From an uncultured Actinomycetes bacterium (GTDB lineage Bacteria > Actinomycetota > Acidimicrobiia > IMCC26256 > PALSA-610), in NCBI GenBank assembly GCA_963812205.1, contig CAWEUJ010000004.1, positions 1,257,315-1,321,314 on the forward strand: a DNA stretch of 64,000 bases. The letters run 5' to 3'. Below are positions 23,745-41,576 of this stretch, one piece after another; position 1 is the first letter of the stretch; each line of letters starts with the position of its first letter. The position numbers and the translations under genes were made by a program. The notes under the pieces were generated by a model. That model saw nothing but the letters and a program-made list of their open reading frames with translations. It was not told the DNA's origin and ran no database searches.

Positions 23745-24350
23745 TCACGCCGTCTTGACGACGGCGTACCAGATCCGTTCGGCCACGCGGACGAGGCTCT
23801 CGCCGAGGCGCGCGTACCGACGGTACAGCTCCCGACGGCCGGTCACCTCGCCGACGTCGCTCACGGCCTGCAGATCCGACATCGCCTTGCGGTAGAGGCG
23901 CTCGAGGGCTCGCTCGCAGCGGATCGCGGCATCGGCCTCTTCGGTGGCGCGGTCCTTGTCGCCGGGCAGTGCCGCGAACGCGGTCGAGAGGTGGCGGACG
24001 CCGTCGGCGAGCGTCACGCTCATGCTCGCCAGCGCGGTGTCGGGCGCCATGTTCATCAGGTCGGCTTCGCGCACGGCATTCTTGGCGCCGTTGAGGATCG
24101 CGTCGAGCCGCTCGGACAGCTCGTAGATGTCCTCCGGGTCGAGCGGGGTGCTGAACGCGGCGCGGAGTTGGCCGAGGAGCTCGCGACGAGCCGCGTCGGC
24201 TTCATGTTCGGTGTCTCGCACCGTGCGCGCGGCGGACGCGTTCCCGGCCGACCACTGCGCGAACGCGTCGAGGCCGGCGACGGTGATCTCGGCCTGCGAT
24301 CGGAGCAGCGCGATCAGATCGGGTGTATGGGGCAGGAACCACCGCTTCAT
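23745..24350 (-). CDS. DUF47 (PhoU-like, Pit accessory) protein
   Basis: 201 aa from MKRWFLPHTPD. The helical DUF47 pattern is present. The start overlaps the pitA stop (ATGA). Confidence 0.8.
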   Translation of the reverse strand: MKRWFLPHTPDLIALLRSQAEITVAGLDAFAQWSAGNASAARTVRDTEHEADAARRELLGQLRAAFSTPLDPEDIYELSERLDAILNGAKNAVREADLMNMAPDTALASMSVTLADGVRHLSTAFAALPGDKDRATEEADAAIRCERALERLYRKAMSDLQAVSDVGEVTGRRELYRRYARLGESLVRVAERIWYAVVKTA

Positions 24351-25350
24351 GTGAACGCCCTCCAGAGGGGCAAGAGCACGCCCGCGAGCATCGCGCAGGC
24401 CGGGAGCGTCACGACCCAGGCCAATCCCATCTCGCGCACTACTGCCCACCGTACGTGTCGCCAGCGTTGCTGGGCGCCGACACCCACGATCGAAGAGGCC
24501 ACCACGTGAGTCGTGCTCACCGGTGCGCCGAGCGCGGCGGCAGCGAAGATCACGCTTGCCGAGCTGGCCTGGCTCGTCAGGCCGTCGAGGGGCCGTAAGC
24601 GCACGATTCTCATGCCGAGCGTGCGAACGATGCGCCAGCCTCCGAGGCTCGTGCCCAACGTGAGCGACGCCGCGGAGAGCAGCTTCACCCACAGCGGCAC
24701 CGCGAAGTGCGCGAGGTTTCCGTGCGCCACGAGGAGCAACGTGATCACGCCCATCGTCTTTTGCGCATCGTTCGTGCCGTGACTGAACGCGAGCGCGGCC
24801 GAGGTCCCCCATTCGGCGCGCCGGATCGGCTTCTCGATCTCACGGCGCGCGCGCCGCAGCGCGGTGACCGCGAAACGATGAGCACCGAACCCGACCGCGA
24901 AGCCGAGCAGGGGTGAGATCGCGAGTGCACTCAGCACGCCCGCGACGCCGACCGGGCGCACACCGTCGAAGCCGCCCCAGCGCACCGCGTGTGTCCCGCG
25001 CCGGCGACGGCCGCGCCGACGAGGCCCCCGACGAGCGCGTGGCTCGAGCTCGACGGCAGGCCCTTCCACCACGTGAGCACGTTCCACAGCAGCGCGGCGC
25101 TGAGGGCCGCGCCGACGGTGGCCGTCGTCGCGCTCGAGCGGACGTCCACGACCCCCGCAACGGTGCTCGCCACCGCCGTTCCCGCGATCAGCGGTCCGAG
25201 GACGTGAAACGCAGAGACCCAGGCGAGCGCGGGGCCCGGACGAGCGGCCCGGGTCGCGACGAGCGCGGCGATTGCATTCGATGAGTCGTGGAATCCGTTC
25301 GTGAAGTCGAATGCCACCGCGACCAGCACGGCGACGAGCAGGCCCAGCAC
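24347..25350 (-). pseudogene. pitA: PiT-family inorganic phosphate transporter, frameshifted near 24987
   Basis: The N-terminal part (ORF 24931..25350) reads MLGLLVAVLVAVAFDFTNGFHDSSNAIAALV...SSSHALVGGLVGAAVAGAGHT. The continuation AVRWGGFDGV...FSHGTNDAQKTMG... lies in another frame (the 3' part of ORF 24347..25528). One base appears to be missing in ACG(G)CGGTG. Confidence 0.8.
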
Positions 25351-25536
25351 TCACATCACCGTCGGGCCCGGTCAGACATGTCGACCCCTCGCTGTGGTCC
25401 CCGTCCATCGTCGCCGGGGCCCGCCCGGCCAACGAGGGCCGAAGGACCCGACGACCCGGCCCGCTCGTCCCTGTCCGGCGACGCGTTCCTCCGTCATTGT
25501 GGGGAGCAGATCCGCAACAAGGAGTCACTCAGCGTG

Positions 25537-26350
25537 ATGGCCCGCATGATCATCGTCCCGCTCGACGGCTCGGAGTTCGCCGCGCGCGGTTCCCGTTGCT
25601 CGCGCCGTCGCTTGCCGGGTCGGCGCCCGGATGATCGTCATGTCGACCCGGTGGGAACAGAATCCGGAGGAGACTGGGAAGTACCTCGAACGCGTCGCGC
25701 AGGAACAACACGACGTCGAGACCGAGGTGATGCTGGTCGACCAGCATCCGGCGTGGCGCGCGATCGCCAGCGTCTCCAGCGCGCACCCCGACTCCGTCGT
25801 CTGTATGACGTCGCACGGCCGGGGCGCGTTGCGCTGGGCGATGCTCGGCAGTGTTGCCGAGGATGTCGTGCGACATGCCCGAAAGCCGCTGCTGCTCGTC
25901 GGCCGTCATTGCGCGGTCGACTGGTCGCTGCGTACCGGGCGTCTCCTCGTCTGCGTCGACGCGTTCAGTGATCCCGAGGCGGTGGTGCCGGTCGCGTCGG
26001 AATGGGCCAAGGCCTTCGGTCTCGATGTCCAGGTCGCGATGGTCTCGCATCTGCTCGACGCCGAGTCCGAGACCTATGCGAACACCACCGTCCACGCGAT
26101 CGCCGACCGCTTCGTGGACGAGGGTGTGGCCGCCGAAGCGATCATGTTGCGCGGCTCTTCGCACATCGCGGCGACGCTCGCCGACTTCGCAGGGGATCTG
26201 CCGGCCGACCTGGTCGTGATCAACGCGAGCGGGCGCGACGGCGTGTCGCGTGTCGTGCTCGGGAGTGTCGCGATGGGCGTGGTGGGCCTCGCGCCCTGCC
26301 CGGTGCTCGTCATACCCGCTCCCGCGCACAAGGCGCCGAAGGAATCCTGA
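25537..26350 (+). pseudogene. Tandem universal stress protein, frameshifted near 25585
   Basis: MARMIIVPLDGSEFAA (frame 1, AAGGAG RBS upstream) matches the N-terminus of the paralogue at 53614. The expected continuation RAVPVARAVACRVGARMIVMSTRWEQ...TSHGRGALRWAMLGSVAEDVVRHA is in frame 2 (ORF 25631..26350). The shift falls in GCCGCGCGCGGTT. Confidence 0.7.
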
Positions 26351-26351
26351 C

Positions 26352-27488
26352 ATGCACGGCATCAAGGGCTTCCGCATCGGTTCGATTGCGGGGCTCGATA
26401 TCAAGCTCGACTGGAGCATTCTCATCATCTTCTGGTTGTTGACGTGGAGCTTGGCCGCGTCCGGGCTCCCCGCGTTCACCGCCGGATACGGGACCGCGCA
26501 GTACTGGGTCGCGGCTGTCGCGACGACTGTCGCCTTCTTCGTTTCGCTCCTGGCCCATGAGTTGAGTCACTGCGTCGTGGCCCGCCGGCACGGCATCCAC
26601 GTGCGCGACGTCACGCTCTGGCTGCTCGGGGGAGTGTCGCGGTTGGAGCAGGAGCCGCCGACTCCCTCGGCCGACCTTCGCATCGCGCTCGCGGGCCCGG
26701 CGATGAGCTTCGCGCTGGGCGCCGGCGCGTTCGGTGTGGCCGTGCTCCTGGTCGCGCTGGGCGCACCCGACCTCGTCACGTCGTGCGCGGTCTGGCTCGC
26801 ATCCGTCAACATCATCTTGGCCGTATTCAACCTGGTGCCGGCCGCGCCGCTCGACGGCGGTCGGGTCCTGCGCTCGATCCGTTGGCGGCAGACGGGCGAT
26901 CGCGCTCGGGCCACGATCGACGCTGCGCGCGCGGGCCGCGTCTTCGCGTTCGTTCTGGTCGGGTTGGGATTCTTCGAGTTCCTCGTGGGTGTCGACGTGT
27001 CGGGCCTGTGGTTCGTGCTCCTCGGCTGGTTCCTGCTCTCGGCCTCGCGCGTCGAGGAGATGCAGGCGCGGATGACGCGCAGTCTGGGAACGACCCGTGT
27101 TCGCGATCTCATGACCCCGGACCCGATCTCCGTGCCCGGCACGATCAGCGTCCACGACGCGCTGCACGACTACGTGCTCGCGCGGCACTGTTCGTCGTTC
27201 CCGGTGCTTGCGGCCGACGGCGGGTGCACCGGACTCGTCACGCTCGGTCGCATGCGGTCGGTCAGACCCGAGCTGCGCACGACGACGCCCGTCTCGGCGA
27301 TCTCCTGGACGCTCGTCGATCTCACGACCGCCGCTCCCGACGAGCTGTTGCTCGACGTGTTGCGCCGGAGCAAACCCGGTGGAGACGGTCGGATCCTCGT
27401 GTGTGAGGGGGCGGCGGTCGTCGGCATCATCTCGCCGACCGATATCACCCGCGCGCTCCAGGCGATCGACGCCGAGACCGTCTCGTGA
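26352..27488 (+). CDS. Site-2 protease (M50) with a C-terminal CBS pair
   Basis: 378 aa from [10 protein letters not shown]. It has the HELSH zinc motif, [12 protein letters not shown], and then two CBS-like segments ([13 protein letters not shown]... / ...[10 protein letters not shown]). Confidence 0.85.
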
Positions 27489-27522
27489 TCGCGGTGGTCG
27501 ACTCTGTCGTGGGAGGTACCCG

Positions 27523-29274
27523 GTGGTGCAGGAAGAACGCATACACAAGGCGCGAGTCGCAGCCGTGGCGCCCAACCTCGACGACTACGACGCCGCGCGT
27601 CGGTCTTTCGGATGGGACACGGCGCGCGGCCGCCTCGACGGGCTGCCGGCCGGAGGCCTGAACATCGCGCACGAGGCCGTGGTCCGCCACGCGCGCGGAC
27701 CGCGGGCGGGTCACGTCGCCATCCGGTGGCGCGGCAAGGACGGAGCCAGGCGTGATCTCACGTACCGCGATCTCGACGCCCTCACGAATCGCTTCGCCAA
27801 CACGCTGCGCTCGCTCGGGGTGCAGCTCGGTGACCGGGTTTACACGTTGCTGGGACGCGTCCCGGAATTGCACGTGGCGGTGCTCGGCGCGCTCAAGGCG
27901 GGCGCGGTGGTTTCGCCGCTCTTCTCCGCGTTCGGCCCCGAACCGATCCGCCAGCGGCTCCTCCTCGGCGACGCCCGGGTGCTCGTGACGACCGCCGCGT
28001 TGTATCGGCGCAAGGTCGAGTCGATCCGCGCCGACGTGCCCGGTCTCGCGCACGTGCTGTTGGTCGGGACCGACGAGTTCGACGAGCAGCAACGGCGCGC
28101 GTCCGACGAGTTCACGATCGCGCCGACCGACCCGGCGCAACTCGCGCTGCTGCACTTCACGAGCGGCACAACCGGGACGCCGAAGGGTGCGATGCACGTG
28201 CACGAAGCCGTCGTCGCGCACGAAGCCACGGCACGGTTCGCGCTCGACCTGCATCCCGACGACGTCTTCTGGTGCACCGCCGATCCTGGCTGGGTGACCG
28301 GGACGTCGTACGGCATCATCGCGCCATTGACGATCGGCGCGACCCTCGTTCTCGACGAAGGCGAGTTCGACGCGCAGCGGTGGTACGAGACGCTCGAGCG
28401 TGAGCGCGTCACCGTCTGGTACACCGCACCCACCGCGATTCGCATGATGATGCGGGCGGCGGGGGTCGACGCCCGCACACGCGACCTGTCCGCGCTTCGC
28501 CTCGTCGCGAGTGTGGGCGAGCCGCTGAACCCGGAAGCCGTGCGCTGGGGTGTCGACGCGCTCGGTCTCGCGATCCACGACAACTGGTGGCAGACGGAGA
28601 CCGGCGGGATCATGATCGCCAACTACCTGTCCGCCGACATCAAGCCGGGTTCGATGGGCCGGCCGCTCCCCGGCATCGACGCCGCGATCCTCCGGCGCGA
28701 CGAACACGGCGAGGTCGTGGTCCGCGACGGAGTCGTCGAGAGGTGCGAGACCGGTGAGGAGGGGGAGCTCGCGCTGCGCGTGGGCTGGCCTTCGATGTTC
28801 CGCGGGTATCTCGGCGAGGACGAGCGTTACCGGAAATGCTTCCGCGACGGCTGGTACCTGAGCGGGGATCTGGCGCGCTGCGACGACGACGGCTACTACT
28901 GGTTCGTCGGCCGCGGGGACGACGTCATCAAGTCGGCCGGTCATCTCATCGGCCCCTTCGAGGTCGAGAGCGCGCTGATGGAGCACCCCGCGGTCGCCGA
29001 GGCCGGGGTGATCGGCAAGCCCGACCCGATCGTCGGTGCGGTGGTGAAGGCGTTCGTGGTGTTGCGCGCCGGCTACGAAGCGAGCGACTCGTTGCGCCTC
29101 GAGCTCGTCGGCTTCGCCCGCAAGCGGTTGGGAGCCGCAGTGGCCCCCAAGGAGATCGACTTTCGCGCGGACCTCCCGAAGACGCGTAGTGGAAAGATCA
29201 TGCGGCGGCTGTTGCGGGCGCGTGAGCTCGGATTGCCCGAAGGAGACCTTTCGATGCTGGAGACGCAGTCATGA
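27523..29274 (+). CDS. acsA: Acetyl-CoA synthetase, AcsA (short Bacillus-type AMP-forming acetate-CoA ligase)
   Basis: It is collinear with B. subtilis AcsA as I recall it ([63 protein letters not shown]). The start is GTG 27523/27526, after GGGAGG. Confidence 0.8.
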
Positions 29275-30239
29275 CCGAGCTCCTCGACTCCGCGGACGCC
29301 CTTGCACTGCTGCGCGAGATGTTGCGCGTCCGGCGGTTCGAGGAGCGCTGCGTCGAGCTCTACAGCGCGGGACGGATCCGCGGTTTCGTGCACCTCTACA
29401 TCGGCGAGGAAGCCGTGGCGGTGGGCGTACTCGACGCGCTGTCTCCCGACGACGACGTCGTCGCGACCTACCGCGACCACGGTCACGCCCTGGTCCGGGG
29501 CGTGGCCGCGCCGGCGATCATGGCGGAGATGTACGGCCGCCAGGAAGGATGCAGCCGCGGCCGCGGCGGCTCGATGCACCTCTTCGACGTCGCTCATCGC
29601 TTCTACGGCGGCAACGCGATCGTGGCCGGCGGCCTGCCCGTGGCAGTCGGTCTCGCGTTGGCGCGGAAGATGCAGGGCCGCGGCGGTGTCGTTGCGTGCT
29701 TCTTCGGCGAGGGCGCGGTCGCGGAGGGCGAGTTCCACGAGTGCATGAACCTTGCCGCGCTCTGGGAGCTCCCGGTGCTCTTCTGCTGCGAGAACAACCT
29801 GTACGCGATGGGTACGGCACTCGGTCGATCGGAGTCGGAGACCGATCTCGTCCTGAAGGCTTCGAGCTACGAGATGCCGGCGTGGCCGGTGGACGGGATG
29901 GACGTCGTCGCGGTGCGCGGCGCCACCCGGCGCGCGGTCGAGTCGATCCGGGCCGGGGGCGGTCCGCATTTCCTCGAGCTGCGCACGTACCGGTTCCGCG
30001 CCCATTCGATGTACGACCCGGAGCGCTATCGCGACAAGGTCGAGGTCGAGGAGTGGAAGTTGCGCGATCCGATCACGGCGCTGGTCGAGCGCTCCTCGAT
30101 CGGCCCGGACGACGTCGCCGCGCTCGAAGGGGAGATCGCGCAAGAGGTCGACGCCGCGGTCGCGTTCGCGGAGGCCGGAACGCCCGAACCCGTCGAGGAC
30201 CTGACCCGATTCGTGACGAGTGAAGCGGGCCGGACATGA
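29271..30239 (+). CDS. 2-oxoacid (pyruvate/acetoin) dehydrogenase E1 alpha subunit, TPP-dependent
   Basis: 322 aa. It has [32 protein letters not shown] and the GDGA-like TPP motif [14 protein letters not shown]. The start overlaps the acsA stop (ATGA). Confidence 0.9.
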
Positions 30240-31229
30240 CCGGGGAAACGATCGAGCTCACCTACCGCGAGGCGATGCGCGAAGCGATGCGCGAGGCGAT
30301 GCGCGCCGACCCCCGCGTGTTCCTCATGGGAGAGGACGTCGGCCGCTACGGCGGTTGCTTCGCGGTGAGCCTCGGACTGCTGGAGGAGTTCGGACCCGAC
30401 CGGGTGCGCGATACGCCGCTGTCGGAGTCGGCGTTCGTCGGCGCGGGCATCGGCGCCGCGCTCGGCGGCATGCGCCCGATCGTCGAGATCATGACCGTGA
30501 ACTTCAGCCTGCTCGCGCTCGATCAGATCATGAACAACGCGGCGACGCTGCTGCACATGTCGGGGGGCCAGTGCAACGTGCCGGTCGTCATACGCATGAC
30601 CACGGGCGCCGGCCGCCAGGTCGCGGCGCAGCACTCGCACAGTCTCGAGGGGTGGTACGCGCACATCCCCGGGCTGCGCATCCTTGTGCCCGCGACGGTC
30701 GAGGATGCGCGCGACGATGTTGCGGCCCGCGCTGGAGGACCCGGATCCGGTGCTCATCTTCGAGCACGCGGGCCTCTACAACACCTCCGCCGAGGTCGCG
30801 ACCGATCTCGGAGCCATCGACATCGAGCGAGCGGCCGTGCGCCGGCGCGGCGCCGACGTCACGCTGATCACCTACGGCGGAACCCTGCCGATGACCCTCG
30901 ACGCGGCCGAACGGCTCGCGACCGCCGGGACGGAGGCCGAAGTCGTCGATCTGCGAACGCTTCGCCCGCTCGACGACGAGACGATCATCGATTCCGTGCG
31001 GCGGACACATCGGGCGGTGATCGTCGACGAGGGCTGGCGGAGCGGCTCGATCTCGGCCGAGATCAGCGCCCGGATCATGGAGCAGGCGTTCTACGATCTC
31101 GACGCCCCGGTCGAACGGGTGTGTGGGGCCGAGGTCCCGATGCCGTACGCCAAGCACCTCGAGGAGGCGGCACTCCCCGGCGTGGACGCGATCGTTGCCG
31201 CCGCGACCCGGATGGCGCCGCGTGCCTGA
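30236..31229 (+). pseudogene. 2-oxoacid dehydrogenase E1 beta subunit, frameshifted near 30714
   Basis: ORF 30236.. reads correctly to ...[14 protein letters not shown] and then turns to nonsense. ORF 30684..31229 continues [21 protein letters not shown]... to the end. The junction GCGCGC-GACG-ATG has one base too many or two too few. Confidence 0.8.
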
Positions 31230-32463
31230 GCCGAGCGGGATCTTTCGCATGCCGTCACTGGGCGCCGACATGGATTCGGGCACGGTCCTCGAATGGCTCG
31301 TGCACCCGGGCGACGTGGTGCACCGGGGCGACCTGGTCGCGGTGGTGAAGACCGACAAGGCCGACATCGACGTCGAGATCTTCGAAGACGGCGTGATCGG
31401 CGAGTTGCTCGTCGCGGAGGGAACCGAGGTCGCCGTCGGGACACCGCTCGCGACGCTCGTCGGCTCGGCGCCGGTCGCGCCGCCGGTCGCGCCGCCGGTC
31501 GAGACGCCGGCCGCGCCGCCGCGCCCGGTCGTGGCTCCGGTCGAGACGCCGGTCGAGGCGCCGGAGCCCGTTGCGCCCCGGCCGGCCCCTCGCGTCGTCG
31601 CGCCGCCCCCGCCCGGCCCCGGTGGGCGCGTCATTGCGTCACCGTACGCACGCCGGCGCGCCGCGGAGCTCGGCGTCGACATCGAGGCACTGACGCCGGA
31701 GCGCGCCGGTCATCCGATCTCGGCGGCCGACGTGGAGCGCGTCGCGGCGGCGACGACGACGACAGGGGAGCGAGCGGCCGGCACCGAGCCCGTCGATCAG
31801 GCCGCCGCGATGCGTCGTGCGATCGGCAATCTCATGGCTCGCTCCAAGCGCGAGATCCCGCACTACTACCTCGAACACGACATCGCGTTGACGCACACCC
31901 TCGCGTGGCTCGCATCGCACAATGCCGGGGTCCCGGTGGAGCAGCGGGTGTTGCCGGCGGCGCTGTTCTGCAAGGCGGTGGCCCTCGCGGCCCGTGAGAG
32001 CCCGGCGCTCAACGGCTTCTGGCACAACGACGGGTTCACACCCGGTGCCGGTGTGCACCTCGGAGTCGCCATCGCGCTGCGCGGCGGCGGCCTGGTGGCG
32101 CCCGCGATCCGCGACGCCGACGGGCTCGAGTTGGCAGAGATGATGGCGCGATTGCGCGACCTCACGGCGCGTGCCCGAAGCGGCCGGCTCCGCGGCTCGG
32201 AGATGACCGACGCGACGATCACCGTCACGAACCTCGGCGACCAGGGCGTGCGCGCGGTGTTCGGTGTCATCTATCCCCCGCAGGTCGCGCTCGTCGGCTT
32301 CGGGAAGGTCTCCGAACGTGTGTGGGCCGATGACGGTTCGATGGCGGTGCGCCCGGTCGTGTCGGCCACCCTCTCGGCCGATCACCGCGCCACCGACGGC
32401 CACCTCGGCGCACGGTTCCTGGCCCGTATCGAAAAGCTCCTGCACCGACCGGAGGAATTGTGA
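31222..32463 (+). CDS. Dihydrolipoamide acyltransferase E2 (lipoyl domain, PSBD, catalytic domain)
   Basis: It has the lipoyl motif [12 protein letters not shown], a Pro/Ala linker, the [20 protein letters not shown], and the catalytic DHRATDG. The start is GTG 31222 (overlapping the E1-beta stop) or ATG 31249. Confidence 0.85.
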
Positions 32464-32714
32464 GCACAGACGTTTCTGCGGCGATTCGGCGCGCGATCGC
32501 CGGAATCGCCCCCGAAGCCGATCTCGACGCGTTGGCGCCCGATGCCGATCTCCAAGAGGAGCTCGACCTCGACTCGATGGACTTCCTCAACTTCCTCATC
32601 GCGCTCGGGGAGTCCACGGGCGTGCACGTACCGGAGTCGGACTACGCGCAGGTCCGGACCTTCGGCGGTTGCAGCGCCTACGTGAGTGCCCGCCTCGAGG
32701 CCACACAGGGGTGA
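32460..32714 (+). CDS. Acyl carrier protein-like (phosphopantetheine attachment site)
   Basis: 84 aa and acidic. LDLDSMDFLNFLIAL contains the DSx Ser attachment motif at the start of helix 2. The GTG start overlaps the E2 stop (GTGA). Confidence 0.7.
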   Translation: MSTDVSAAIRRAIAGIAPEADLDALAPDADLQEELDLDSMDFLNFLIALGESTGVHVPESDYAQVRTFGGCSAYVSARLEATQG

Positions 32715-33550
32715 GCACCGATCTGCCGGCTCGGCGGCCGCCGCGGTCGCGGCGCCGGATCGTCGTTGCCGTCGTGGTCGTCGTGGCGTTCGTCGCGATC
32801 GTGGTCGTCGTGATCCTTTGGAACCGAAGCGGTGCGCACCAGGCGTCGACGAGCGACGCGCAGCGCCGCTTCGAGCAGAGCTCCGCGACCCAACCGCCGA
32901 ACACGAGCGTGCTCCGACCTGCGGCCGGCGTGTACTCGTATCGCGGTTCCGGAACGGAGCACCTCTCGCTCCCGCCCAAGACGCAGAACCAGGGTCCGCT
33001 GATGCCCGCGACGGTGACGCACCGCACCGACGGCTGTTGGACGTTCCGGATCGACTACAACACCGCGCACTGGCAGACCTGGATCTACTGCCCGCGCAAC
33101 GGCGGCCTGGTCGAGCTCGGCGGTCAGACCTTCGAGCGATGGGACTTCGTGTTCACGAAGTACGACAGCACGTCCACCTTCACGTGTGATCCGCCTTCGG
33201 TCGCGATCCGGGCCACGATGCGTGCCGGCGATCAGTGGCGCCAGACGTGTAGCGGGAAGAGCTCCGGCACGACGGGAACGGCGACGACGTCGGGGCCGTA
33301 CACGTTCGTCGGCCCGGAGAACGTCGTCGTGGGCGGCACGGCGGTTCCCGCCTATCACTTCCGCCAGGTACGTACGCTGAGCGGGAATCAGACCGGGACG
33401 CAGAGCGCCGATCTGTGGTTTGCGGTGAACGACGGCCTTCCATTGCGGAACGAGCGTCAGGTCACCGTGCACACCGACACGGTGATCGGATCGTCGACCT
33501 ACACCGAGAGCGGCAGCTTCGAGCTCACGTCCCTGGTGCCCCAGCACTGA
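32711..33550 (+). CDS. Hypothetical N-terminally membrane-anchored protein
   Basis: 279 aa. The GTG start overlaps the ACP stop (GTGA). It has an Arg-rich N-terminus, a TM helix (IVVAVVVVVAFVAIVVVVILW) and then a Cys-containing extracytoplasmic domain with no motif I recognise. Confidence 0.55.
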   Translation: MSTDLPARRPPRSRRRIVVAVVVVVAFVAIVVVVILWNRSGAHQASTSDAQRRFEQSSATQPPNTSVLRPAAGVYSYRGSGTEHLSLPPKTQNQGPLMPATVTHRTDGCWTFRIDYNTAHWQTWIYCPRNGGLVELGGQTFERWDFVFTKYDSTSTFTCDPPSVAIRATMRAGDQWRQTCSGKSSGTTGTATTSGPYTFVGPENVVVGGTAVPAYHFRQVRTLSGNQTGTQSADLWFAVNDGLPLRNERQVTVHTDTVIGSSTYTESGSFELTSLVPQH

Positions 33551-33566
33551 TCGAGCCGCCGGCCGT

Positions 33567-35999
33567 TCATTCCACGAAGCGCAGCGTGCTCGGCAGGTTC
33601 ATCGCGCGCAGGCGGCGAACGTTCAGCAAAGGGGCGAGCGCAGCGGCGGCGAGTCCGATCGCGATGGTCAGCAGGTACGACGCCGGCGTCACCGCCTGCA
33701 GGACGGCAAGGTCGGGCACGGCGGAGGGGAACACCGTGTCGAGGATCCAGCGCAGGAGCGCGGCGCCGAAGCCGAGGCCCAGCGCGACCCCGACCAGGCC
33801 GAGCAGCATGCTCTCCGTCACCGACATGAGCGCGACGACGCGGACGCGCACACCGAATGCGAACATCGTTGCGTGCTCGCGCGCACGTTCCTCGGCACCG
33901 ATGTGGCTGGCGTTGAACGCGACGAGGAATGCGAGCGACGCGATCACGATCTGCAGGATGACGAAGAAGTTTCCGACGACCGAGAGCAGGTTGCGCATCG
34001 TCTTCGACAGTGAGCCGGCCGAGAGCGCCGACGCGACTCCGGGCATCGCGGCGATCGATTGTTGCAGACGCGACATCGAGACATTCGCTCGTGGTTGGAC
34101 CTTGACGGTGTTGACGATGCCGTCGAGTCCCATGATCTTCTCGACGCCGAGATTCATGAAGGCGACGAATCGGTACGGACTCGTATGCACGCCCGCGACG
34201 GTGATGGTGCTGTCGGCGAAGCGGAAACCGGTACCGACCCGCAGCGGATGGCGCAACGTGATCCGGTCGCCGACGCGAACATGGAGATCGGATGCTGCCT
34301 TCTTGGAGACGACGATGCCATCGCCCTTCACGTGGAGCGCGACGATTGCCGCGGGCGCGGAGAGGCGGCTGTCGAGGTCGACGAGACTGAGCGAGACACC
34401 GAGCGTCGTCCTGCCGTGCACGAGATATCCGCCGGTGTTGAGGCCCGGCTCCGCCTTGCCGACGAGCGCGGAATGTTCGATGCGCTGCACGAGCGGCGAC
34501 GAGACACTCTGGTAGCCGGCGAGATCGACGAGCAACCGATCGCCGGTGGAGCCGGTCAGGATGCGCTCGCCGTTCGAGATCGTCGCCGACGCCGAATCGG
34601 TCGCCCCGAGCGCGGCCAGCAGCGGCGCCATGATGAACGAGATTGCGAGGATCGTGAGCACCGATCGCGCCGGTGCGCGCACGATCCGGCGGACCGGGGC
34701 CTGCAGGGTGATGCTGCCGGGAAGACGCACGCGTCGCAGGAGCCGGGTCAGACGGTGGCCGCCGGTCCGGAGGTGGGGCGGGAGGAGCGCGTCGACGGGC
34801 CGCACCCGCACCGCGCGCCAGACCGGGAACGCGCTCGCGACCAGGGGGACCAGCAGGCCGAGGAGCGCGGCGCGCGCGAAGAGCCCGGCCTGGAACGGAG
34901 TCCGCCACACCGGGAGCGGAGCGCTGTCGCGGATGACGGAGACGATCCAGGTGGCGATCAGCCAACCGGCGCCGACGCCGAGCGACACACCCAAGATCGT
35001 GATCTCGGCCGCGACGAGCATTGTGCGGGCCGCGATCTTGGTGCGCGGTACTCCGAGTGACATCGCGATGCCGATGTCGCGCCGCTGGGCCTCCACGACG
35101 CGCTTCGTCAGGTTGAACGCGGCGAAGCCCGCGCCGGCCAGGATCATCAGCGCGAAGACGTCGAAGAGATGCCGCTCGCTGTCGACCTCGCCGTAGAGCG
35201 CGCGCACCGACGGTTCGTCGCGTCGCGCCGTGACCGTGAGCGCGAGGCCGGGAAGGTCCGTGGCGAGCGATCGCCCGAGCCCGGCGGTCGCGCGCTCGAT
35301 GTCGGTGCCGGGTTCGGCGCGCACGACGATGTCGTCGACTTGACCGGAAACGCCGGCGAGCCGCTCGGCCAACCCGATCGGCGCGAACAGGACGGCACGG
35401 GTCGCCTGTCCCTGGATCGCCTCGCCCGAGGTCGTGTTCAGGTCGAGGTACTCGGGTGACAGCGCGAGGCCGACGTAGTGCACGTCGGTCTCGCCCACGC
35501 GAAGCGTTCCCGCGGCGGGGAGATGGTGCTGGCGCGCGAAGTGCAGGTCGAGGAGCGCGACCGGAGCGCCGGCATCGGCGATCGTGAGGTCGCGGCCCGC
35601 CGTGACCTTCCACTGGTCGATGCGCCGCCCGTGCGCGAGGTCGACGCCGAGCACCTCGCCGGCCGCGGGCACGAGCGACGTCCCGCTCGTCGCGGTGACC
35701 GGCACGTGGACCAACAGGCGCGCTTCGAGGCCCGCGATCCAGGCGCCGCCCGCGGCCGCGACCGCGGCGACGGCGCGATCGCGACCGATCGTCTGTCCGC
35801 CCAGCACCGAAATCCGTACGTCGTGGGCGTTCAGCCGGGCGGCGCTCGCGTCGAGCGAGCTGCGCCGCCATACCGACGTGGACCCGAGGCCCGCATAGAT
35901 ACCGGACCCGAGCGCGATGATCGCGGCGATCGCGATCACCTGGGGCGCGCGCTTGCGCAGGTCGCGACCGGACCACCTCAGCCAGAACCGCAGGCCCAC
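33567..35999 (-). CDS. ABC transporter permease with duplicated FtsX modules (MacB-like, about 10 TM)
   Basis: About 810 aa with two FtsX-type 4-TM blocks and large loops. The start is taken as GTG 35999, 4 nt after the corrected ATPase stop (36004). The ORF track extends to 36074. Confidence 0.8.
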   Translation of the reverse strand: MGLRFWLRWSGRDLRKRAPQVIAIAAIIALGSGIYAGLGSTSVWRRSSLDASAARLNAHDVRISVLGGQTIGRDRAVAAVAAAGGAWIAGLEARLLVHVPVTATSGTSLVPAAGEVLGVDLAHGRRIDQWKVTAGRDLTIADAGAPVALLDLHFARQHHLPAAGTLRVGETDVHYVGLALSPEYLDLNTTSGEAIQGQATRAVLFAPIGLAERLAGVSGQVDDIVVRAEPGTDIERATAGLGRSLATDLPGLALTVTARRDEPSVRALYGEVDSERHLFDVFALMILAGAGFAAFNLTKRVVEAQRRDIGIAMSLGVPRTKIAARTMLVAAEITILGVSLGVGAGWLIATWIVSVIRDSAPLPVWRTPFQAGLFARAALLGLLVPLVASAFPVWRAVRVRPVDALLPPHLRTGGHRLTRLLRRVRLPGSITLQAPVRRIVRAPARSVLTILAISFIMAPLLAALGATDSASATISNGERILTGSTGDRLLVDLAGYQSVSSPLVQRIEHSALVGKAEPGLNTGGYLVHGRTTLGVSLSLVDLDSRLSAPAAIVALHVKGDGIVVSKKAASDLHVRVGDRITLRHPLRVGTGFRFADSTITVAGVHTSPYRFVAFMNLGVEKIMGLDGIVNTVKVQPRANVSMSRLQQSIAAMPGVASALSAGSLSKTMRNLLSVVGNFFVILQIVIASLAFLVAFNASHIGAEERAREHATMFAFGVRVRVVALMSVTESMLLGLVGVALGLGFGAALLRWILDTVFPSAVPDLAVLQAVTPASYLLTIAIGLAAAALAPLLNVRRLRAMNLPSTLRFVE

Positions 36000-36003
36000 G
36001 GCC

Positions 36004-36715
36004 CTACCAGCGCAGTTCCGCGACCGGCACACGGCCGCCGGCCGGCGGACCGTCGGAGACGATCCGACCGCCACTCAACTCGACGACGCGATCGGCCACC
36101 CGCGCGATCTCGCGATTGTGGGTGACGACGAGCACCGTCCGACCGGCCTGCGACTGTTGCTGCAGCAGGCTCAGGATTTGCACGCCGGTGTGGAAGTCGA
36201 GCTCGCCTGTCGGTTCGTCGGCGAGGAGAACCGGGTTGCCGGTCGCCAGCGCTGCGCGCGATCGCGACGCGCTGCTGCTCACCGCCCGAGAGCTCGTGCG
36301 GGTAGTGCTGCACCCGCGCCGCCAGCCCGACGTCCTCGAGTACCTGCAGCGCGCGCTCGGCCGCTCCGCGCCGACCCGAGATCTCGGCGCCGAAGCGGAC
36401 GTTCTCCAGCGCGGTCAGCTCGGGGAAGAGGTTGAACGCCTGGAACACGAAGCTGACGGTCTTTCGGCGGTACTCGAATTGCTCGGCCGTCGACGCGCCG
36501 GTCAGCCGCCGACCCGCGACCTCGATCACACCGGCGCTGGGGGTGTCGAGCGCCCCGATCAGGTTGAGCAGCGTCGTCTTGCCGCTGCCGGACGGTCCGA
36601 GTACCACGAGCAGCTCGCCCACTCCGACCGACAACGTCGCGCCGTCGAGCGCGACGACGACTCCGGCGACCGTGTCGAATCGTTTCGACACGTCCCGTAG
36701 CTCAATGAGCGACAT
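36004..36715 (-). pseudogene. ABC transporter ATP-binding protein, frameshifted near 36253
   Basis: ORF 35978..36715 is correct through Walker A GPSGSGKTT and LSGGEQQRVAIAR, then turns to nonsense. ORF 36004..36282 continues ALATGNPVLLADEPTGELDFHTG...VVTHN. An extra A sits in GCGCGC-A-GCGCTG (T at 36253 on the plus strand). Confidence 0.8.
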
Positions 36716-36781: not shown

Positions 36782-37816
36782 TCAGTAGCGGACGATCAAG
36801 ACGATGCCGCCGTGGTCGAAGAGCGTGCCGTCCGGGACGGTCGTCACCTGTCCGCCGTGCTCGAGGACGGCTTCGATGACCTGGTCGACCGCGTCGTGGT
36901 GCGACTCGGTATCTGCAGCCGCGACACGGAAATTCTCTTCGAGGATCAACTCGTGTCCCCGTCCTTCGAGCGCAGCGGTCAATACCGGGGCGAAGCGCGT
37001 GGCCGCACCGCTTCCGACGGCTTCCTGCGCGCGGCGCACGGCCTCGTCGGACCGGCGTGCGAGCTCCGCCTTCAGCGCCGGTTGCACGACGGCCTCGATG
37101 CTCGCGACGCTGTCCTCGACGTGATTGCCGTGGACTCGCCCGACGACGTCAGCTGCGAACTTCGTCACCTCGTCGAAGTACGCGAGCTCCCGAACCGGCG
37201 CGACGACGACGAGCGGCCGGTGGTCGCGCGCCTGCAGCTCGGCCAGCGCGGTGTCGACCTCTCGTAACACGAATCGATGCGCCTCGGCCTCCTCGTGCTC
37301 GCCGATGGGAAGATCTCGATGGGGCGTGTCCTCTTGCACCGGTGGCGAGAGGTGCAGTGGAAAGCCGTGACCGTGGACCTCACGCAGGCTCGCGCCGATT
37401 GCCTCGAAGCAGCGGGCCCGTTCGGCGGCGAGGACGAGCACCCGCGCGTGCAGCGTCTGGCGGATCGCGTTGACAAGATCGCGGGTCGCGAACGCCTCAC
37501 CGACGACGACGCGGCTGAACACCGGGAACGGCAGGGGCGCGACGTGGGCTTCGTCGGCCGTCACCAGAACGGCAACGGCTTCCGACGGGTGGGCGAGGTC
37601 GACGCCCACGATCGCGGCCTCGATGCGACCGAGCAGCGGCGCGACGAGCCGCTCGTCGTACGTGTTCAACACGGCGTCGATCGCCTCCTTGCGGAGTGCT
37701 TCGAGGCGGCGCGGATCCTCCAGGTTGCCCGGACGGCGCCGGTCCAGCCGGCACAGGATCGACACGGCGGGGTTCCCGCGAACCTCCGCGAGCTTCTCGA
37801 TGTCGGTCATGTCCAT
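36782..37816 (-). CDS. eRF1-like (bacterial archaeo-eukaryotic release factor, baeRF) family protein, Rv2629-like
   Basis: 344 aa. The pattern AVSILCRLDRRRPGN..., ARVLVLAAERARCFEA..., ELILEENF..., GGIVLIVRY resembles the eRF1/Pelota-like actinobacterial proteins. This assignment is from memory of the family, not from a search. Confidence 0.5.
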   Translation of the reverse strand: MDMTDIEKLAEVRGNPAVSILCRLDRRRPGNLEDPRRLEALRKEAIDAVLNTYDERLVAPLLGRIEAAIVGVDLAHPSEAVAVLVTADEAHVAPLPFPVFSRVVVGEAFATRDLVNAIRQTLHARVLVLAAERARCFEAIGASLREVHGHGFPLHLSPPVQEDTPHRDLPIGEHEEAEAHRFVLREVDTALAELQARDHRPLVVVAPVRELAYFDEVTKFAADVVGRVHGNHVEDSVASIEAVVQPALKAELARRSDEAVRRAQEAVGSGAATRFAPVLTAALEGRGHELILEENFRVAAADTESHHDAVDQVIEAVLEHGGQVTTVPDGTLFDHGGIVLIVRY

Positions 37817-37925: not shown

Positions 37926-38438
37926 TCAAAGGACGCGTTGCATCAAGACCAGCTCGAGCCAACGGTCGAACTTGCGGCCTACCTCCGGCATTCGTGCCAC
38001 GGTCGCAAATCCGAGCCGTTCATGGAAAGCGATCGAATCGGTGTTGGCGCCGTCCACGGCTGCGACCATGACGTGGACGGCGTTGGCGCGGGCCCGTTCG
38101 ATCAATGCTTCGAGCAACGATCGGCCGAGGCCTCGACCCCAATAGTGCTCGTGGACGTGGACGGTGTGCTCGACGGTGTGGCGATAGCCGGGCCACTTGC
38201 CCGAGCCTCGAAAGCTTCCGTAAGCCGTGAAACCGACCACCTTTCCGGCGACCTCCGCGACGAGGACCGGGTACCCGCAGCGCTGCTGACGGCGAAACCA
38301 CGCCTGGCGCTCCCGAAGCGTCTGCAACGAGTCGGTCCACGCCACAGTCGTCGTCGGGATCAAGGCGTTGTAGAGGTCCCGCAACGCCGGCATGTCGCCG
38401 TCAATCGCGTCGCGAAGGTTCGAATACCTCGATTCCAA
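37926..38438 (-). CDS. GNAT N-acetyltransferase (phosphinothricin acetyltransferase-like)
   Basis: 170 aa. It has the acetyl-CoA binding motif HVHEHYWGRGLGRSLLEALIERA and a PAT-like N-terminus. Confidence 0.85.
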   Translation of the reverse strand: MESRYSNLRDAIDGDMPALRDLYNALIPTTTVAWTDSLQTLRERQAWFRRQQRCGYPVLVAEVAGKVVGFTAYGSFRGSGKWPGYRHTVEHTVHVHEHYWGRGLGRSLLEALIERARANAVHVMVAAVDGANTDSIAFHERLGFATVARMPEVGRKFDRWLELVLMQRVL

Positions 38439-38565
38439 GATGTACAGACTGCCCGATCGCGCGCTGTCCCGGCGAACGCATGACCGTGGTGGCGCGTGGG
38501 TGTGAGCTGTGGACGGCCGCTCATAACTTGCCCATCAATGGGAATTTCTTTGATGCTCGTCGGTG

Positions 38566-39984
38566 TCAGCCGTGGTACTCCGTCGCGGGGTCGATGGTGA
38601 TTGTCATTGCCGGTTTGGGAACGCCGGCGTTGCCCTTGTCGCAATCGAAGGTTCCGGGCTGGATCGGATCGACGCGGACAAACTTGTCGTTTTGAACCTG
38701 CATGGCGACCAGGCAGGTGCTCCCGATGCGACGCCCGACGTCGATGGGCGGGACCATGCCGCCGCCGTCGAAGCTATGCATGTTTCGCAGCGCAGTCAGG
38801 AGATTGGGACGGGTGATCGCGTTCGGGTTGTTGCCGTTCGCCTTCATCGCGTCGTTCACGGCCTGGGTAAAGATCTCACCGGCGATGAACGCCTGGGCGC
38901 CGAAGGCATCAGGCGTCTTGTCGTACTCGAGGAAGTTGTCGAGGGAGGCATTCGAGCCTTTGTCCTCGAAGGGCAGGAAGTTCAGCCATACGTACTGACC
39001 TTCGACCGCGCTGCCACCTTCGGAGATCAACCGGGCGTCGTAGCACTGTAGGGAGCAGTCCCAGGCCTTGACGGTGGAGACGCCCTGTACCTGTGCCTCC
39101 TTGCGCATGAGCACGGTGCTCTTGTAGTCGGACTCGCTGCGCGCGTACGTGGACGTGTGTTCCTTGATCGCTTGCACGACCTGCGTGTAGTCGGTCTGAA
39201 GCGCGGTGCCGCTCTCGCCGAACTCCGCATCGCTGGTGATGCCCATCTTGTTTTCGGCGCGGATGAGCGGCATCGAGGCCGCGATGGTGGACGGCAGGTC
39301 CTTCGGGATCACGAACACGCCGTGCAACGCGCTCGCGCCGAACTTGTTCAGGTAGTAGTCGTATTCGGTGCGGGCGACGTGCTCCGTGCGCGGGCCCTGG
39401 CCGCTGTACGGGCACGAGTAGCCAATCGGCAAAGCGACGAACGAGACGGGCGAGCACTGCTGCGCCGCCTCGGTCTGCAACTCGGCGATGTCGGGCAGCC
39501 CGATCGACTGACCCGCCTTGTCCTTGCAGCCGTTCATCACGCTCACGTCCTGTAAGAACAGCGCGGACGTACCGACAGTCGCGATCGAATCGCTACACGC
39601 GGTCGCGACCGCGTTCGCCGCGTCGGTCGGGCTCAGCTTCGCGTCGCCCTCCTTCACCACGACCTTGCGACACGCCAGGCCGCCCTGGGAGTTGATGTAG
39701 TCGCCCCAAGCCTTCATGCCGTCCCACGAACCCTTGAACAGCCCCGGCCGGATGGAGTTGTTCACGTCCGCGATGACCGTCACCGTGATCGTCGATGCCG
39801 TCACGCCCGTTTCGGTGCTCTGCAACGTCGCCGTCTTGCATACGTTGTTGGTTGTCGTCGGTGGCATCGTGGTGGCGCCCCCGAGGCCGCCGCCGTCATT
39901 GTTGCTGTTGGCGCTCTTGCCACCGCCACACGCGCTGACAACCAGTACCAAAGCCGTCGCGAAAACGTAGCAACGCAGCCGCAT
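38566..39984 (-). CDS. ABC-type solute-binding lipoprotein (LivJ/Peripla_BP_6-like)
   Basis: The start is MRLRCYVFATALVLVVSACGGG (lipobox VSAC). It has a Gly/Asn/Thr-rich linker and a type I periplasmic binding fold pattern. No permease or ATPase is adjacent. Confidence 0.75.
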   Translation of the reverse strand: MRLRCYVFATALVLVVSACGGGKSANSNNDGGGLGGATTMPPTTTNNVCKTATLQSTETGVTASTITVTVIADVNNSIRPGLFKGSWDGMKAWGDYINSQGGLACRKVVVKEGDAKLSPTDAANAVATACSDSIATVGTSALFLQDVSVMNGCKDKAGQSIGLPDIAELQTEAAQQCSPVSFVALPIGYSCPYSGQGPRTEHVARTEYDYYLNKFGASALHGVFVIPKDLPSTIAASMPLIRAENKMGITSDAEFGESGTALQTDYTQVVQAIKEHTSTYARSESDYKSTVLMRKEAQVQGVSTVKAWDCSLQCYDARLISEGGSAVEGQYVWLNFLPFEDKGSNASLDNFLEYDKTPDAFGAQAFIAGEIFTQAVNDAMKANGNNPNAITRPNLLTALRNMHSFDGGGMVPPIDVGRRIGSTCLVAMQVQNDKFVRVDPIQPGTFDCDKGNAGVPKPAMTITIDPATEYHG

Positions 39985-40125
39985 TCTGTCTCCCCCGGGG
40001 TTGTTTGACGGCCGAAGCGTACGGGTCGCCAAACCGGAAGATATGTGATGCTCCGCATCGGAAGACGCGCGAGAGACCCCGCGCGCTGCGGAGCGCGTTC
40101 CCGTTCGACGCGGCAGCCGGCCTGC

Positions 40126-41527
40126 CTATGGTTCGACGATGAACGTCGTCACCATGCCGAACATGCCGTTCGGTCCTTCGGCGTGCGTGAGGATGTGGCA
40201 GTGGAACGCCCAGATGCCGGGCGTGTTGTTCGGGCCGAGGAAGTCCGACGTCACGTGCACGAGTGTCGTAAAGCGTTGCCCCGGGGCGATCGACAGTGTG
40301 TCGACGGTGTACGGGGAGGCGAGGGGATAGCCGTCCTCGCCGATCACGAGTTGCGGCAGCCCGTGCAGGTGCATCGGGTGGATCTGTAGACCTTCGTTGA
40401 AGTAGTTGATCTCCACCCACTCGCCGACGTGTGCGATGACCGGTGCCGTTGCGGGGAACGACTTCCCGTTGAGCGACAGTCCGATCACGCCGGCGTCGTT
40501 GAGCACCATCGGTACGGTCTGGGTGACAGGCCCCGTGTTCGGCGGCAGCGCGGGGTCCCCGACTTGGAAGATCCCCAGCATTCCGTTCGGGACCTGCACC
40601 TGCGCGTCGTGGTGTGAGTGATACATGCCGAGCTCGGGCTTGTTGATCGTGAACGTCGTACGTGAAGCTCTTGCCCGGCTTGATCGGGGCTTGTGTGATG
40701 TCGGGGACGCCGTCCATGTTGAACGGCACCTCGAGCCCGTGGAAGTGCACTCCCGTCGACATCGGCAGCTTGTTGTCGACGACGATGCGCACGGGGTCAC
40801 CGACGTTGACCTTGATCGAAGGGCCCGGGACGGTGCCGTTGAACGTCCACGCGCGGACGGTCTTGCCCGGAGAAACCTCCCAGTTGGCGAGCTCGGCCGT
40901 GAGGTGGAACACCTTCGTCCCGTCGGGCAGAACCTGTGGGACGAGGGGCGTGTTGCCGACGCCCTTGGTGTTCGCGCCGTTCTTCAGTTGTTCGGTGTAG
41001 ACGTTCACGGCCTTCGCCATCGTGGCGTCCATCTGGTCGTTCATGGCCGAGAGCTGTTGGGGCGTCATGCTGTTGAAATCCATGTTCGCCATTCCCGACG
41101 CGCTCGACGCGGCGGCGCCGGAACCGCCGACGACGAGTGATGCCTGCATGCCCAGCTGTTGATGACCGGAGATCGCGCAGAACGCCGTGTAGCTGCCGGC
41201 CTCGAGTCCCTTGAGGTCGACGGTGGCCGACTCTCCCGGCTGCAGGTCCTTCGTGCGGATGTTCGTGCCCTGCACGTTGAAATTGTGCACGGCCGAGCCC
41301 GCATTCGTTACGACGAGTTTGCCGTTGAGCGGCGCGGAGATCGTCGCCGGGGTGATGGAGAACTCCGCCAACGTCACCTGCACCGCGCCCGCGGGCGATC
41401 CGATCTTCCGGCTGTCGGCGTGCGCCGCGACGACGAACGCGAGGAAGCCGAACATGAGCGCGACCAGCGCCAACGCGACACCGGCGGTTCCAACTGCTTC
41501 GCGATCGCGACGCGTGAACAAGGGCAC
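40126..41527 (-). pseudogene. Multicopper oxidase with N-terminal TM anchor and fused cupredoxin domain, frameshifted near 40657
   Basis: The upstream frame gives the TM, the type-1 site AFCAISGHQQLGM, GVHFHGLEV and ...IKPGKSFTY. The downstream frame (ORF 40126..40800) continues FTINKPELGMYHSHHDAQ, HPMHLHG and HCHILTHAEGPNGM. The junction TAC-GACG-TTC has one base too many. The start is GTG 41527, after GAGGAG. Confidence 0.8.
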
Positions 41528-41576
41528 GACTGATCTCCTCGAGGTAAACGGTGAAGGTGGACAGACGCAGGGCGCG

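Follow-up and report, generated by a model that had tools for sequence, protein, structure and literature searches.

A conserved five-gene cassette that links pyruvate dehydrogenase-type E1 and E2 components to an acyl carrier protein and an acetate ligase

The stretch of DNA analysed here (the window; 64,000 nucleotides (nt) of the 1.58-Mb contig CAWEUJ010000004.1 from an uncultured Actinomycetes bacterium, with a GC content of 69%) carries at positions 27523-33550 of its + strand six consecutive genes. They encode an AMP-forming acetate-activating ligase (Acs), the two subunits of a pyruvate dehydrogenase (PDH)-type E1 component, a dihydrolipoyl acyltransferase (E2), an acyl carrier protein (ACP), and a membrane-anchored protein of 279 amino acids (aa) to which no family can be assigned. 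The first five genes are one copy of a widespread and self-contained cassette, and we propose, as a tentative interpretation, that its E1 and E2 components acetylate the ACP. All coordinates are positions in the window; families were assigned by Pfam and NCBIfam profile searches, the scores of which were compared with the curated cut-offs.

Genes of the locus and conservation of the cassette

27523-29274, + strand: acs, AcsA-type AMP-forming acetate-activating ligase, gene 1 of the cassette (PRK04319; AMP-binding and AMP-binding_C)
29271-30239, + strand: E1α, thiamine diphosphate (ThDP)-binding subunit, PDH type (E1_dh, 258 bits; TIGR03182); ATGA overlap with acs
30236-31229, + strand: E1β, split by a one-base insertion (Transket_pyr, Transketolase_C and PRK09212 with the repaired protein)
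31222-32463, + strand: E2 dihydrolipoyl acyltransferase (Biotin_lipoyl, E3_binding, 2-oxoacid_dh)
32460-32714, + strand: ACP, 84 aa, final gene of the cassette, GTGA-coupled to E2 (PP-binding)
32711-33550, + strand: membrane-anchored protein, 279 aa, without a Pfam or NCBIfam family

The original prediction, drawn from the DNA letters, had described six open reading frames (ORFs) on the + strand that are joined by overlapping stop and start codons; the positions of the genes and all five overlaps (ATGA, ATGA, GTGCCTGA, GTGA, and GTGA) were borne out by our analysis. It had also treated each of the six genes as a single ORF, which is true for five of them; the E1β gene is split by an extra base near position 30714 that had been missed. 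The reading frame changes near 30713-30715, the N-terminal part of the protein being read in frame with position 30236 and the C-terminal part in frame with position 30684. When the DNA is aligned with that of a relative assembled from short reads (locus L091; 83% identity), the window reads GCGCGCGA[C]GATG and the relative reads GCGCGCGA-GATG, a difference of one extra C. Removal of one base yields a normal E1β of 330 aa, and the gene of the relative is intact and encodes 331 aa. A GGGAGG sequence is present 7 nt 5' of the GTG start codon of acs and a GGAGG box 4 nt 5' of the GTG start codon of the ACP gene; a scan of positions 25300-34000 for promoters and terminators revealed nothing above chance.

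The extent of the cassette was defined through two scans. The first was seeded with the ACP (alignment A1), took one genome per species, and found this type of ACP in at least 563 species genomes; detailed counts refer to the best 80 loci from these genomes (hereafter, the 80 loci). The second scan was carried out on metagenomes independently of the ACP by using E2 as the seed (alignment A3 and the signature peptides FxMPxLGADM and [KN]REIPHYY), and it returned at least 592 loci; its neighbour counts take in only loci with enough flanking DNA, and the ACP was called in them by a hidden Markov model. By tblastn, acs, E1α, E1β, E2, and the ACP gene follow each other in identical order and on the same strand, wherever room allows, in 78 of the 80 loci. 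When E2 is taken as the starting point, the ACP gene lies directly 3' of it in 72 of 74 loci, and E1β (58 of 59), E1α (44 of 44), and acs (30 of 30) are found on its 5' side. The distance from the E2 stop codon to the ACP start codon is -4 in 55 and -1 in six of the 80 loci, so that the two genes overlap in 61 of them. Since the ACP-seeded and the E2-seeded scans independently give the order acs-E1α-E1β-E2-ACP, the pairing of E2 and ACP is beyond chance. The linkage of these two genes, originally noticed in a single operon, is thus a conserved one, and the ACP gene is present in orthologous operons; with the invariant Ser39 described below, two of the checks named in the original prediction therefore failed to refute it. 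Identities across phyla range between 67 and 80% for E1β, 57 and 75% for Acs, 39 and 63% for E2, and 44 and 68% for the ACP.

The two exceptions among the 80 loci are L072 and L012. L072 is a false member of the cassette family, as its ACP is only 41% identical and adjoins a ketoacyl synthase. In L012 (8187-10216), acs is followed directly by the ACP gene and then by a phosphoenolpyruvate (PEP)-synthase-like gene, while E1α, E1β, and almost the whole of E2 are absent. The Acs protein of this locus terminates in ...LEEPWTPAPK, which resembles the tail of some E2 proteins of Acidimicrobiales (...PEELWTPAPQ); because of this E2-type tail, L012 is a deletion derivative in which the end of acs has been joined to the end of E2, and we reject it as proof of a partnership between Acs and ACP, for which it is weak evidence.

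Carriers of the cassette belong to about a dozen phyla: Acidimicrobiia and other Actinomycetota, Chloroflexota, Myxococcota, Planctomycetota (including Kuenenia), Acidobacteriota, Nitrospirota (many Nitrospira), Methylomirabilota, Verrucomicrobiota, Binatia, Dormibacterota, and Alpha-, Beta-, and Gammaproteobacteria. Among cultured bacteria, the cassette is present in Hydrogenophaga aromaticivorans D2P1, in which the NCBI names of the proteins are generic ('acyl carrier protein'; 'dihydrolipoamide acetyltransferase family protein'). A tblastn search of the plasmid collection with the ACP gave zero matches, and no published description of the acs-E1-E2-ACP unit was found among the open-access papers and preprints to which the literature was limited.

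No conserved sixth gene accompanies the cassette; the commonest neighbour within 3 kb 3' of it, a phosphoribosyltransferase (PRTase), occurs in 15 of 116 loci. The 279-aa membrane-anchored protein, which the operon had originally been supposed to feed, does not belong to the cassette and is a lineage-specific insertion. None of the 80 ACP-seeded genome loci contains it, and it is not conserved 3' of the ACP gene in the metagenome loci; its co-occurrence with the cassette ACP on short contigs is confined to the nearest relatives (approximately 73% identity or more), and in the closest cassette relatives as judged by their ACP (L090-L092), other genes follow. All taxon-named members of its 159 homologues are from Acidimicrobiia, and homologues are present in unrelated contexts at identities of 71% (L088), 59% (L089), 57% (L001), and 49% (L003). 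The AlphaFold2 model of the 279-aa protein (pLDDT 92) consists of an arginine-rich N-terminus, a transmembrane helix formed by residues 13-39, and an all-β domain; four cysteines are invariant, and matches to known folds are weak, the best of them being the lipoprotein YmcC (2in5) with TM scores between 0.33 and 0.45. Both the conserved cysteines and the positive-inside rule favour an orientation of the modelled domain towards the outside of the cell, a location that would put it beyond the reach of a cytoplasmic ACP and argues against its being a client of this carrier. In one genome of the Acidimicrobiia (L001, 7684-10837), the gene for its homologue overlaps the end of a gene for a family GH38 α-mannosidase, which hints at a role related to the cell envelope or to glycans rather than to acyl metabolism.

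The enzymes and the carrier protein

Acs exceeds the cut-off of the acetate--CoA ligase family PRK04319 (878 bits vs. 729), and its best match in the PDB is a 572-aa acetyl-CoA synthetase (9g79; 547 bits) that aligns with residues 17-580 of the 583 residues of Acs; the WWQTETGG motif is retained. E1α scores above the cut-off of TIGR03182, the equivalog family of the PDH E1α subunit (432.4 bits vs. 393.85), and the repaired E1β protein scores above that of PRK09212 (410.1 bits vs. 321). The ThDP-binding motif G(D/E)G...ENN of E1α is found in all relatives, with GDG in 43 and GEG in 27 loci. E1 is classified here as PDH type because of these NCBIfam equivalog scores, an assignment that points to an acetyl unit derived from pyruvate and not to a glycolyl unit derived from a ketose. 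The label 'acetoin' that had previously been attached to the operon does not stand: PRK14875, the acetoin-type E2 family, matches only residues 9-177 of the E2 protein, i.e., its lipoyl part (61.5 bits vs. 307), and the E1 subunits are of the PDH type.

E2 possesses the three domains expected of a dihydrolipoyl acyltransferase (Biotin_lipoyl, 66.5 bits; E3_binding, 26.6 bits vs. a cut-off of 23.7; 2-oxoacid_dh, 195 bits). The lipoyl lysine lies in the sequence TDKA in the window and in TDKA, THKG, or TEKG in the relatives, and this residue (K46) is invariant in alignment A3. The motif of the peripheral-subunit (E1/E3)-binding domain, SPxARRLAxELGVDL..V.GTGP.G.ITR.DV, is conserved in the E2 family, as is the catalytic motif, which reads DHRATDG in the window and DHR..DG in all 80 C-termini. 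At the level of sequence, all enzymes of the cassette look catalytically intact. The solved structures nearest to E2 are those of the mammalian PDH acyltransferase (E2p). E2 nevertheless stays under every NCBIfam cut-off for the E2 proteins of pyruvate, 2-oxoglutarate, and branched-chain 2-oxoacid dehydrogenases, the best score being that with TIGR01349 (215.6 bits vs. 445). The members of this E2 family end in a conserved short C-terminus, LLQEPExL (32440-32463 in the window), that is two to five residues shorter than the ends of the solved E2p proteins. The C-terminal residues of E2 form inter-trimer contacts, and it is possible that the oligomeric state of the cassette E2 differs from that of E2p. 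In a subgroup of the Acidimicrobiales, the E2 proteins carry the extension ...LWTPAPQ in place of LLQEPExL, and their genes overlap the start of the ACP gene by 22 nt.

The ACP meets the cut-off of the PP-binding family (PF00550; 31.5 bits vs. 20.8) and misses those of all NCBIfam ACP subfamilies, with PRK08172 as the best match (39.5 bits vs. 76). Ser39, the predicted phosphopantetheine site (LDLDSMDF) and the serine of the D-S-x motif with which helix II starts, is invariant both in the 22 aligned sequences (22/22) and in the 80 loci (80/80), as are D36, D38, and P18 in the latter, and the carrier can be recognised by the signature IAPEAD...LDLDSMDFLNF...PExDY; 2117 homologues were found in the protein collection. 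Judged by its sequence, the ACP is therefore a real and dedicated carrier protein, and the ACP-like ORF of the original prediction is genuine. That it is functionally tied to E2 is indicated by the position of its gene directly 3' of E2 in the E2-seeded loci and by the overlap of start and stop codons. A pairing of its Cys71 with the phosphopantetheine thiol for the re-oxidation of lipoamide was considered and dropped, as Cys71 is present in 47 of the 80 loci and is replaced by Leu in Hydrogenophaga.

Because the E1 subunits pass the curated cut-offs while neither E2 nor the ACP falls into a curated NCBIfam family, E2 and the ACP are, as far as profile scores can tell, the components that separate the cassette from a standard PDH. 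The operon had already been noted to lack a gene for E3, and this is true in cis both here and in the related loci. No E3 gene is part of the operon in the window, none was called in L005-L007, L090, and L091, and a class-I disulfide-reductase motif was detected in the flanks of only one of 84 loci, at a distance of 7 kb. A motif for phosphopantetheinyl transferase (PPTase) was found in none of the flanks of these 84 loci.

Neighbouring genes and physiological setting

24347-25528, - strand: PitA-type phosphate transporter, frameshifted
25631-26350, + strand: tandem universal stress protein (USP; Pfam Usp, 92 bits)
~26352-27488, + strand: M50 protease with CBS domain (Peptidase_M50 and CBS); ends 34 nt 5' of acs
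35978-36715, - strand: ABC ATPase, frameshifted
36782-37816, - strand: baeRF family 3 protein (PF18845, 87.8 bits)

Several of the genes in the vicinity of the cassette belong to families that recur next to its relatives. Such recurrent neighbours encode USPs, Hsp20, PRTase/dienelactone-hydrolase or erythromycin-esterase-like proteins, PEP-synthase/pyruvate phosphate dikinase (PPDK)-like enzymes, zinc-dependent alcohol dehydrogenases, short-chain dehydrogenases/reductases, P-type ATPases, Band7/NfeD proteins, GroEL, PRPP synthetase, and proteins of baeRF family 3. The USP of the window is 59% identical to the USP that adjoins the cassette of L091. The baeRF family 3 gene directly adjoins the ACP gene in L005-L007 and L090 (L005, 8382-9461; L090, 9317-9778), and the protein of the window, which is encoded beyond an intervening ABC transporter pair, is 38% identical to that of L005. 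Genes for PEP-synthase/PPDK-like enzymes are frequent beside the cassette in the Acidimicrobiia. Genes for non-ribosomal peptide synthetases (NRPS), polyketide synthases (PKS), or PPTases are present neither in the flanks of approximately 150 related loci nor in the window.

The gene families that flank the cassette are typical of regulons for hypoxia or dormancy, of which mycobacterial DosR and the lxa locus of Burkholderia are examples. Boxes of the FNR/CRP type (TTGAT-N4-ATCAA; up to one mismatch) occur within 350 bp 5' of acs in four loci, all of them proteobacterial (L047, L056, L067, in which the box is perfect, and L074), and are positioned 100-180 bp 5' of the gene; their density 5' of acs (0.24 per kb) is about eight times that of the background (0.03 per kb). 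From the flanking gene families and the FNR-type boxes in some Proteobacteria, we infer that the cassette serves the handling of pyruvate and acetate under low oxygen or another stress that arrests growth.

Three further features were observed. In the Burkholderiales loci L024, L044, and L048, a protein of approximately 970 aa in which an N-terminal carrier domain is joined to an AMP-binding domain is encoded on the - strand, about 1.5-4 kb 3' of the ACP gene. At 5730-8270 (+ strand), the window encodes a large secreted protein in which an Ig/FN3-like unit of approximately 88 aa occurs in at least four perfect tandem copies, followed by GRGYWLVA.DGG.F.FGDA repeats; these repeats explain why the GC/AT skew is strong at 6-8 kb of the window. 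The GC content dips from about 0.69 to 0.64-0.65 at 38000-42000, a stretch that includes the gene for a periplasmic binding protein (38566-40032, - strand) and that may be acquired DNA.

Proposed reaction, alternatives, and known systems

We suggest, with a probability that we put at roughly 0.45, that the PDH-like E1 and E2 proteins acetylate the dedicated ACP in primary or stress metabolism; the suggestion is the most economical one in which the conserved, coupled ACP has a use, and it draws on the properties of the encoded proteins and on analogy with the quinocarcin (Qnc) and scleric acid (Scl) systems discussed below. Translational coupling would provide the five proteins in roughly equal amounts. 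The PDH-type E1 would decarboxylate pyruvate and reductively acetylate the lipoyl arm of E2, the acyltransferase domain of which would then transfer the acetyl moiety to the phosphopantetheine thiol of holo-ACP, instead of or besides CoA. The AcsA-type ligase would connect the resulting pool of acetyl-thioesters with free acetate by using ATP/AMP and pyrophosphate (PPi). Both a PPTase and an E3 enzyme, the latter docking on the retained binding domain of E2 to re-oxidise the lipoyl arm, would have to be supplied in trans.

A number of points weigh against this suggestion. The catalytic domain of E2 resembles that of ordinary CoA-using E2p proteins, with mammalian PDH E2 proteins as its best matches, and since Acs is akin over its full length to the solved acetyl-CoA synthetase 9g79, an ordinary acetyl-CoA-forming PDH operating together with Acs would be workable without any ACP. 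CoA reaches the cores of canonical E2 assemblies from their interior, a route that would be demanding for a 9-kDa protein. No conserved neighbour of the cassette in 116 loci accounts for the fate of acetyl-ACP. With respect to the physiological setting, FNR-like boxes are found in only the four loci mentioned above, the DosR box (GGGAC-N4-GTCCC; up to one mismatch) is matched seven times in the window when 6.7 matches are expected and never 5' of acs, and the stress or low-oxygen setting is deduced from neighbouring gene families only.

The first alternative to be considered is an ordinary acetyl-CoA-forming PDH that works next to an acetyl-CoA synthetase, with the ACP as an accessory and not as the acyl acceptor. 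The canonical sequences of E1, E2, and Acs and the retention of the E3/E1-binding domain in E2 are just what such an arrangement would call for. The ACP might then serve as octanoyl donor for the lipoylation of E2, given that LipB-type lipoylation naturally draws on octanoyl-ACP, or it might be a subunit with a structural or regulatory role, like acyl-ACP in some mitochondrial complexes. However, genes for LipA, LipB, LipM, and fatty acid synthesis are not conserved in the vicinity of the cassette, and the one-to-one translational coupling of the ACP with E2 suits a role as substrate or subunit. Furthermore, the recognition helix of the ACP (LDLDSMDFLNF) is unlike that of the housekeeping carrier AcpP and all curated ACP cut-offs are missed, so that charging of this carrier by type II fatty acid synthesis is doubtful. 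Hence, we consider this alternative unlikely.

A second alternative takes the suggested acetylation of the ACP further and envisions a closed route that is independent of CoA. Acetyl groups would pass from pyruvate via acetyl-lipoyl-E2 to acetyl-S-ACP, and the ligase would run in reverse (acetyl-S-ACP + AMP + PPi -> acetate + ATP + holo-ACP), with the ACP as the carrier shared by E2 and the ligase; ATP would be gained during oxygen limitation and the CoA pool would be left untouched. Such a route would fit the co-inheritance of the five genes across phyla as an autonomous unit in which every junction is coupled, the lack of a conserved consumer of acetyl-ACP encoded nearby, and the frequent proximity in the Acidimicrobiia of PEP-synthase/PPDK-like enzymes, the reactions of which likewise involve pyruvate and AMP; an acetate-forming fermentation would suit a low-oxygen island. 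Yet the ligase is closely related over its entire length to the acetyl-CoA synthetase 9g79 and passes the cut-off of an acetate--CoA ligase family, and its sequence bears no sign of a switch from CoA to ACP; the sole locus in which acs and the ACP gene are adjacent is the deletion derivative L012, and a source of PPi is not evident. We therefore view the closed route as rather improbable. More doubtful again is the notion of a CoA-independent machine with 'two swinging arms', in which the lipoyl arm would deliver to the phosphopantetheine arm of the ACP and the latter to the reversed ligase, and which would constitute a portable module for substrate-level ATP formation under oxygen limitation. 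If it were true, such a module would be at the disposal of many aerobic or autotrophic bacteria, Nitrospira, Hydrogenophaga, Acidimicrobiia, and Methylomirabilota among them.

A third alternative concerns only the genome under study, in which the operon might be a decaying cluster of pseudogenes and the frameshift in E1β real. The one-base insertion does disrupt E1β, and the genes for PitA and the ABC ATPase, located within 6 kb on either side, are each split over two frames as well. Three breaks in about 12 kb are, on the other hand, what consensus indel errors would produce. Scattered single frameshifts and fragmentation likewise affect the contigs of long-read metagenome-assembled genomes of the relatives L004, L029, and L090; the E1β gene of L091 is intact; and the remaining ORFs of the cassette are intact and have a high GC content at third codon positions. 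Because two neighbouring genes are also frameshifted, the gene of L091 is intact, and the long-read contigs of relatives are similarly broken, the extra base in E1β is probably an assembly or consensus indel error, and decay of the operon is quite unlikely. Finally, a natural-product-type system providing glycolyl- or acyl-ACP as extender or starter unit for use by the downstream membrane-anchored protein, although it shares the four-part architecture of E1α, E1β, lipoyl-acyltransferase, and ACP with SclQ2, SclQ3, SclQ4, and SclQ1 and could point to the GTGA overlap between the last two of the six genes and to the recurrence of their adjacency on short contigs of the nearest relatives, is very improbable, being already largely refuted by the neighbourhood data: the membrane-anchored protein with its four invariant cysteines is found in none of the 80 loci, is not conserved 3' of the ACP gene in the metagenome loci, occurs elsewhere at 49-71% identity, and is predicted to lie outside the membrane, NRPS, PKS, and PPTase genes are lacking in the flanks, and E1α passes the cut-off of the PDH E1α family.

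PDH is one of the most thoroughly studied enzyme complexes, and CoA is generally regarded as its acyl acceptor. In the cassette, a PDH-type E1/E2 pair comes firmly tied to a carrier protein of its own and to an acetate ligase. Among its hosts are nitrite oxidisers, anammox bacteria, and bacteria of the methane cycle, all of them important in the environment. If the ACP is indeed the acceptor, the formation of acetyl-ACP by lipoyl enzymes would be common in the stress or low-oxygen metabolism of bacteria, well beyond a few antibiotic pathways, and the annotation of cassette genes as 'pyruvate dehydrogenase' would mis-state the flow of carbon.

With the canonical heterotetrameric (E1α2β2) PDH of mitochondria, alphaproteobacteria, and Bacillus, the cassette shares E1 subunits that score above the respective cut-offs and an E2 with lipoyl, binding, and DHRxxDG domains. 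It differs in that no E3 is encoded in the operon or its flanks, E2 reaches 216 bits instead of the 445 bits of the cut-off and has the short LLQEPExL tail, and translational coupling joins the ACP gene to E2 and acs to E1α. The acetoin dehydrogenase AcoABC(L) likewise consists of a heterodimeric ThDP-dependent E1 and a lipoyl E2, and in some bacteria it is genomically linked to acetate or acetoin genes. In contrast to it, the cassette matches PRK14875 only in the lipoyl part of E2, its E1α passes the PDH and not the acetoin model, and AcoL and AcoX are absent.

By their gene content, the DosR regulon and the lxa locus of Burkholderia cenocepacia are similar to the surroundings of the cassette in containing genes for USPs, Hsp20, PRTase/erythromycin-esterase-like proteins, P-type cation ATPases, zinc-dependent alcohol dehydrogenases, and PEP-synthase-like enzymes. 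The cassette departs from those islands in that its flanks differ between loci and that the DosR box is no more frequent in the window than expected by chance. Given this variability of the flanks, the cassette is a module in its own right that tends to end up in islands of the stress type. The paper on the lxa locus was examined as a possible earlier description of the cassette and rejected, since it mentions neither PDH nor ACP (PMC3721108).

The closest described precedent that we found is the E1/E2-to-ACP route of the Qnc and Scl systems. QncN/L/M in the biosynthesis of quinocarcin and SclQ1-4 in that of scleric acid build an acyl unit on a lipoyl arm and hand it to an ACP (PMC6335953). 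These systems reside in NRPS-type clusters together with a PPTase, derive their glycolyl unit from ketose phosphates, and are without an acetate ligase. In terms of gene architecture, as compared with Table 1 of PMC6335953, the cassette resembles them by co-encoding a ThDP-dependent E1-like protein, a Pyr/transketolase-C protein, a lipoyl-acyltransferase, and a free-standing ACP; it is unlike them in that its E1 subunits score as those of a true PDH, its first gene is always an AcsA-type ligase, and it is flanked in many phyla by stress-type genes and not by NRPS, PKS, or PPTase genes. Of the original proposal that the operon is an acyl-ACP-generating system comparable to the glycolyl-ACP route, the likeness to this precedent thus persists, whereas the natural-product context has no counterpart in approximately 150 loci and the PDH-type E1 points to acetyl rather than to a glycolyl unit. 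What would be new in the cassette, as far as its sequences and the analogy permit, is the use of the E1/E2-to-ACP logic in a primary or stress-related setting, in fixed association with an acetate ligase and with a very wide distribution among bacteria.

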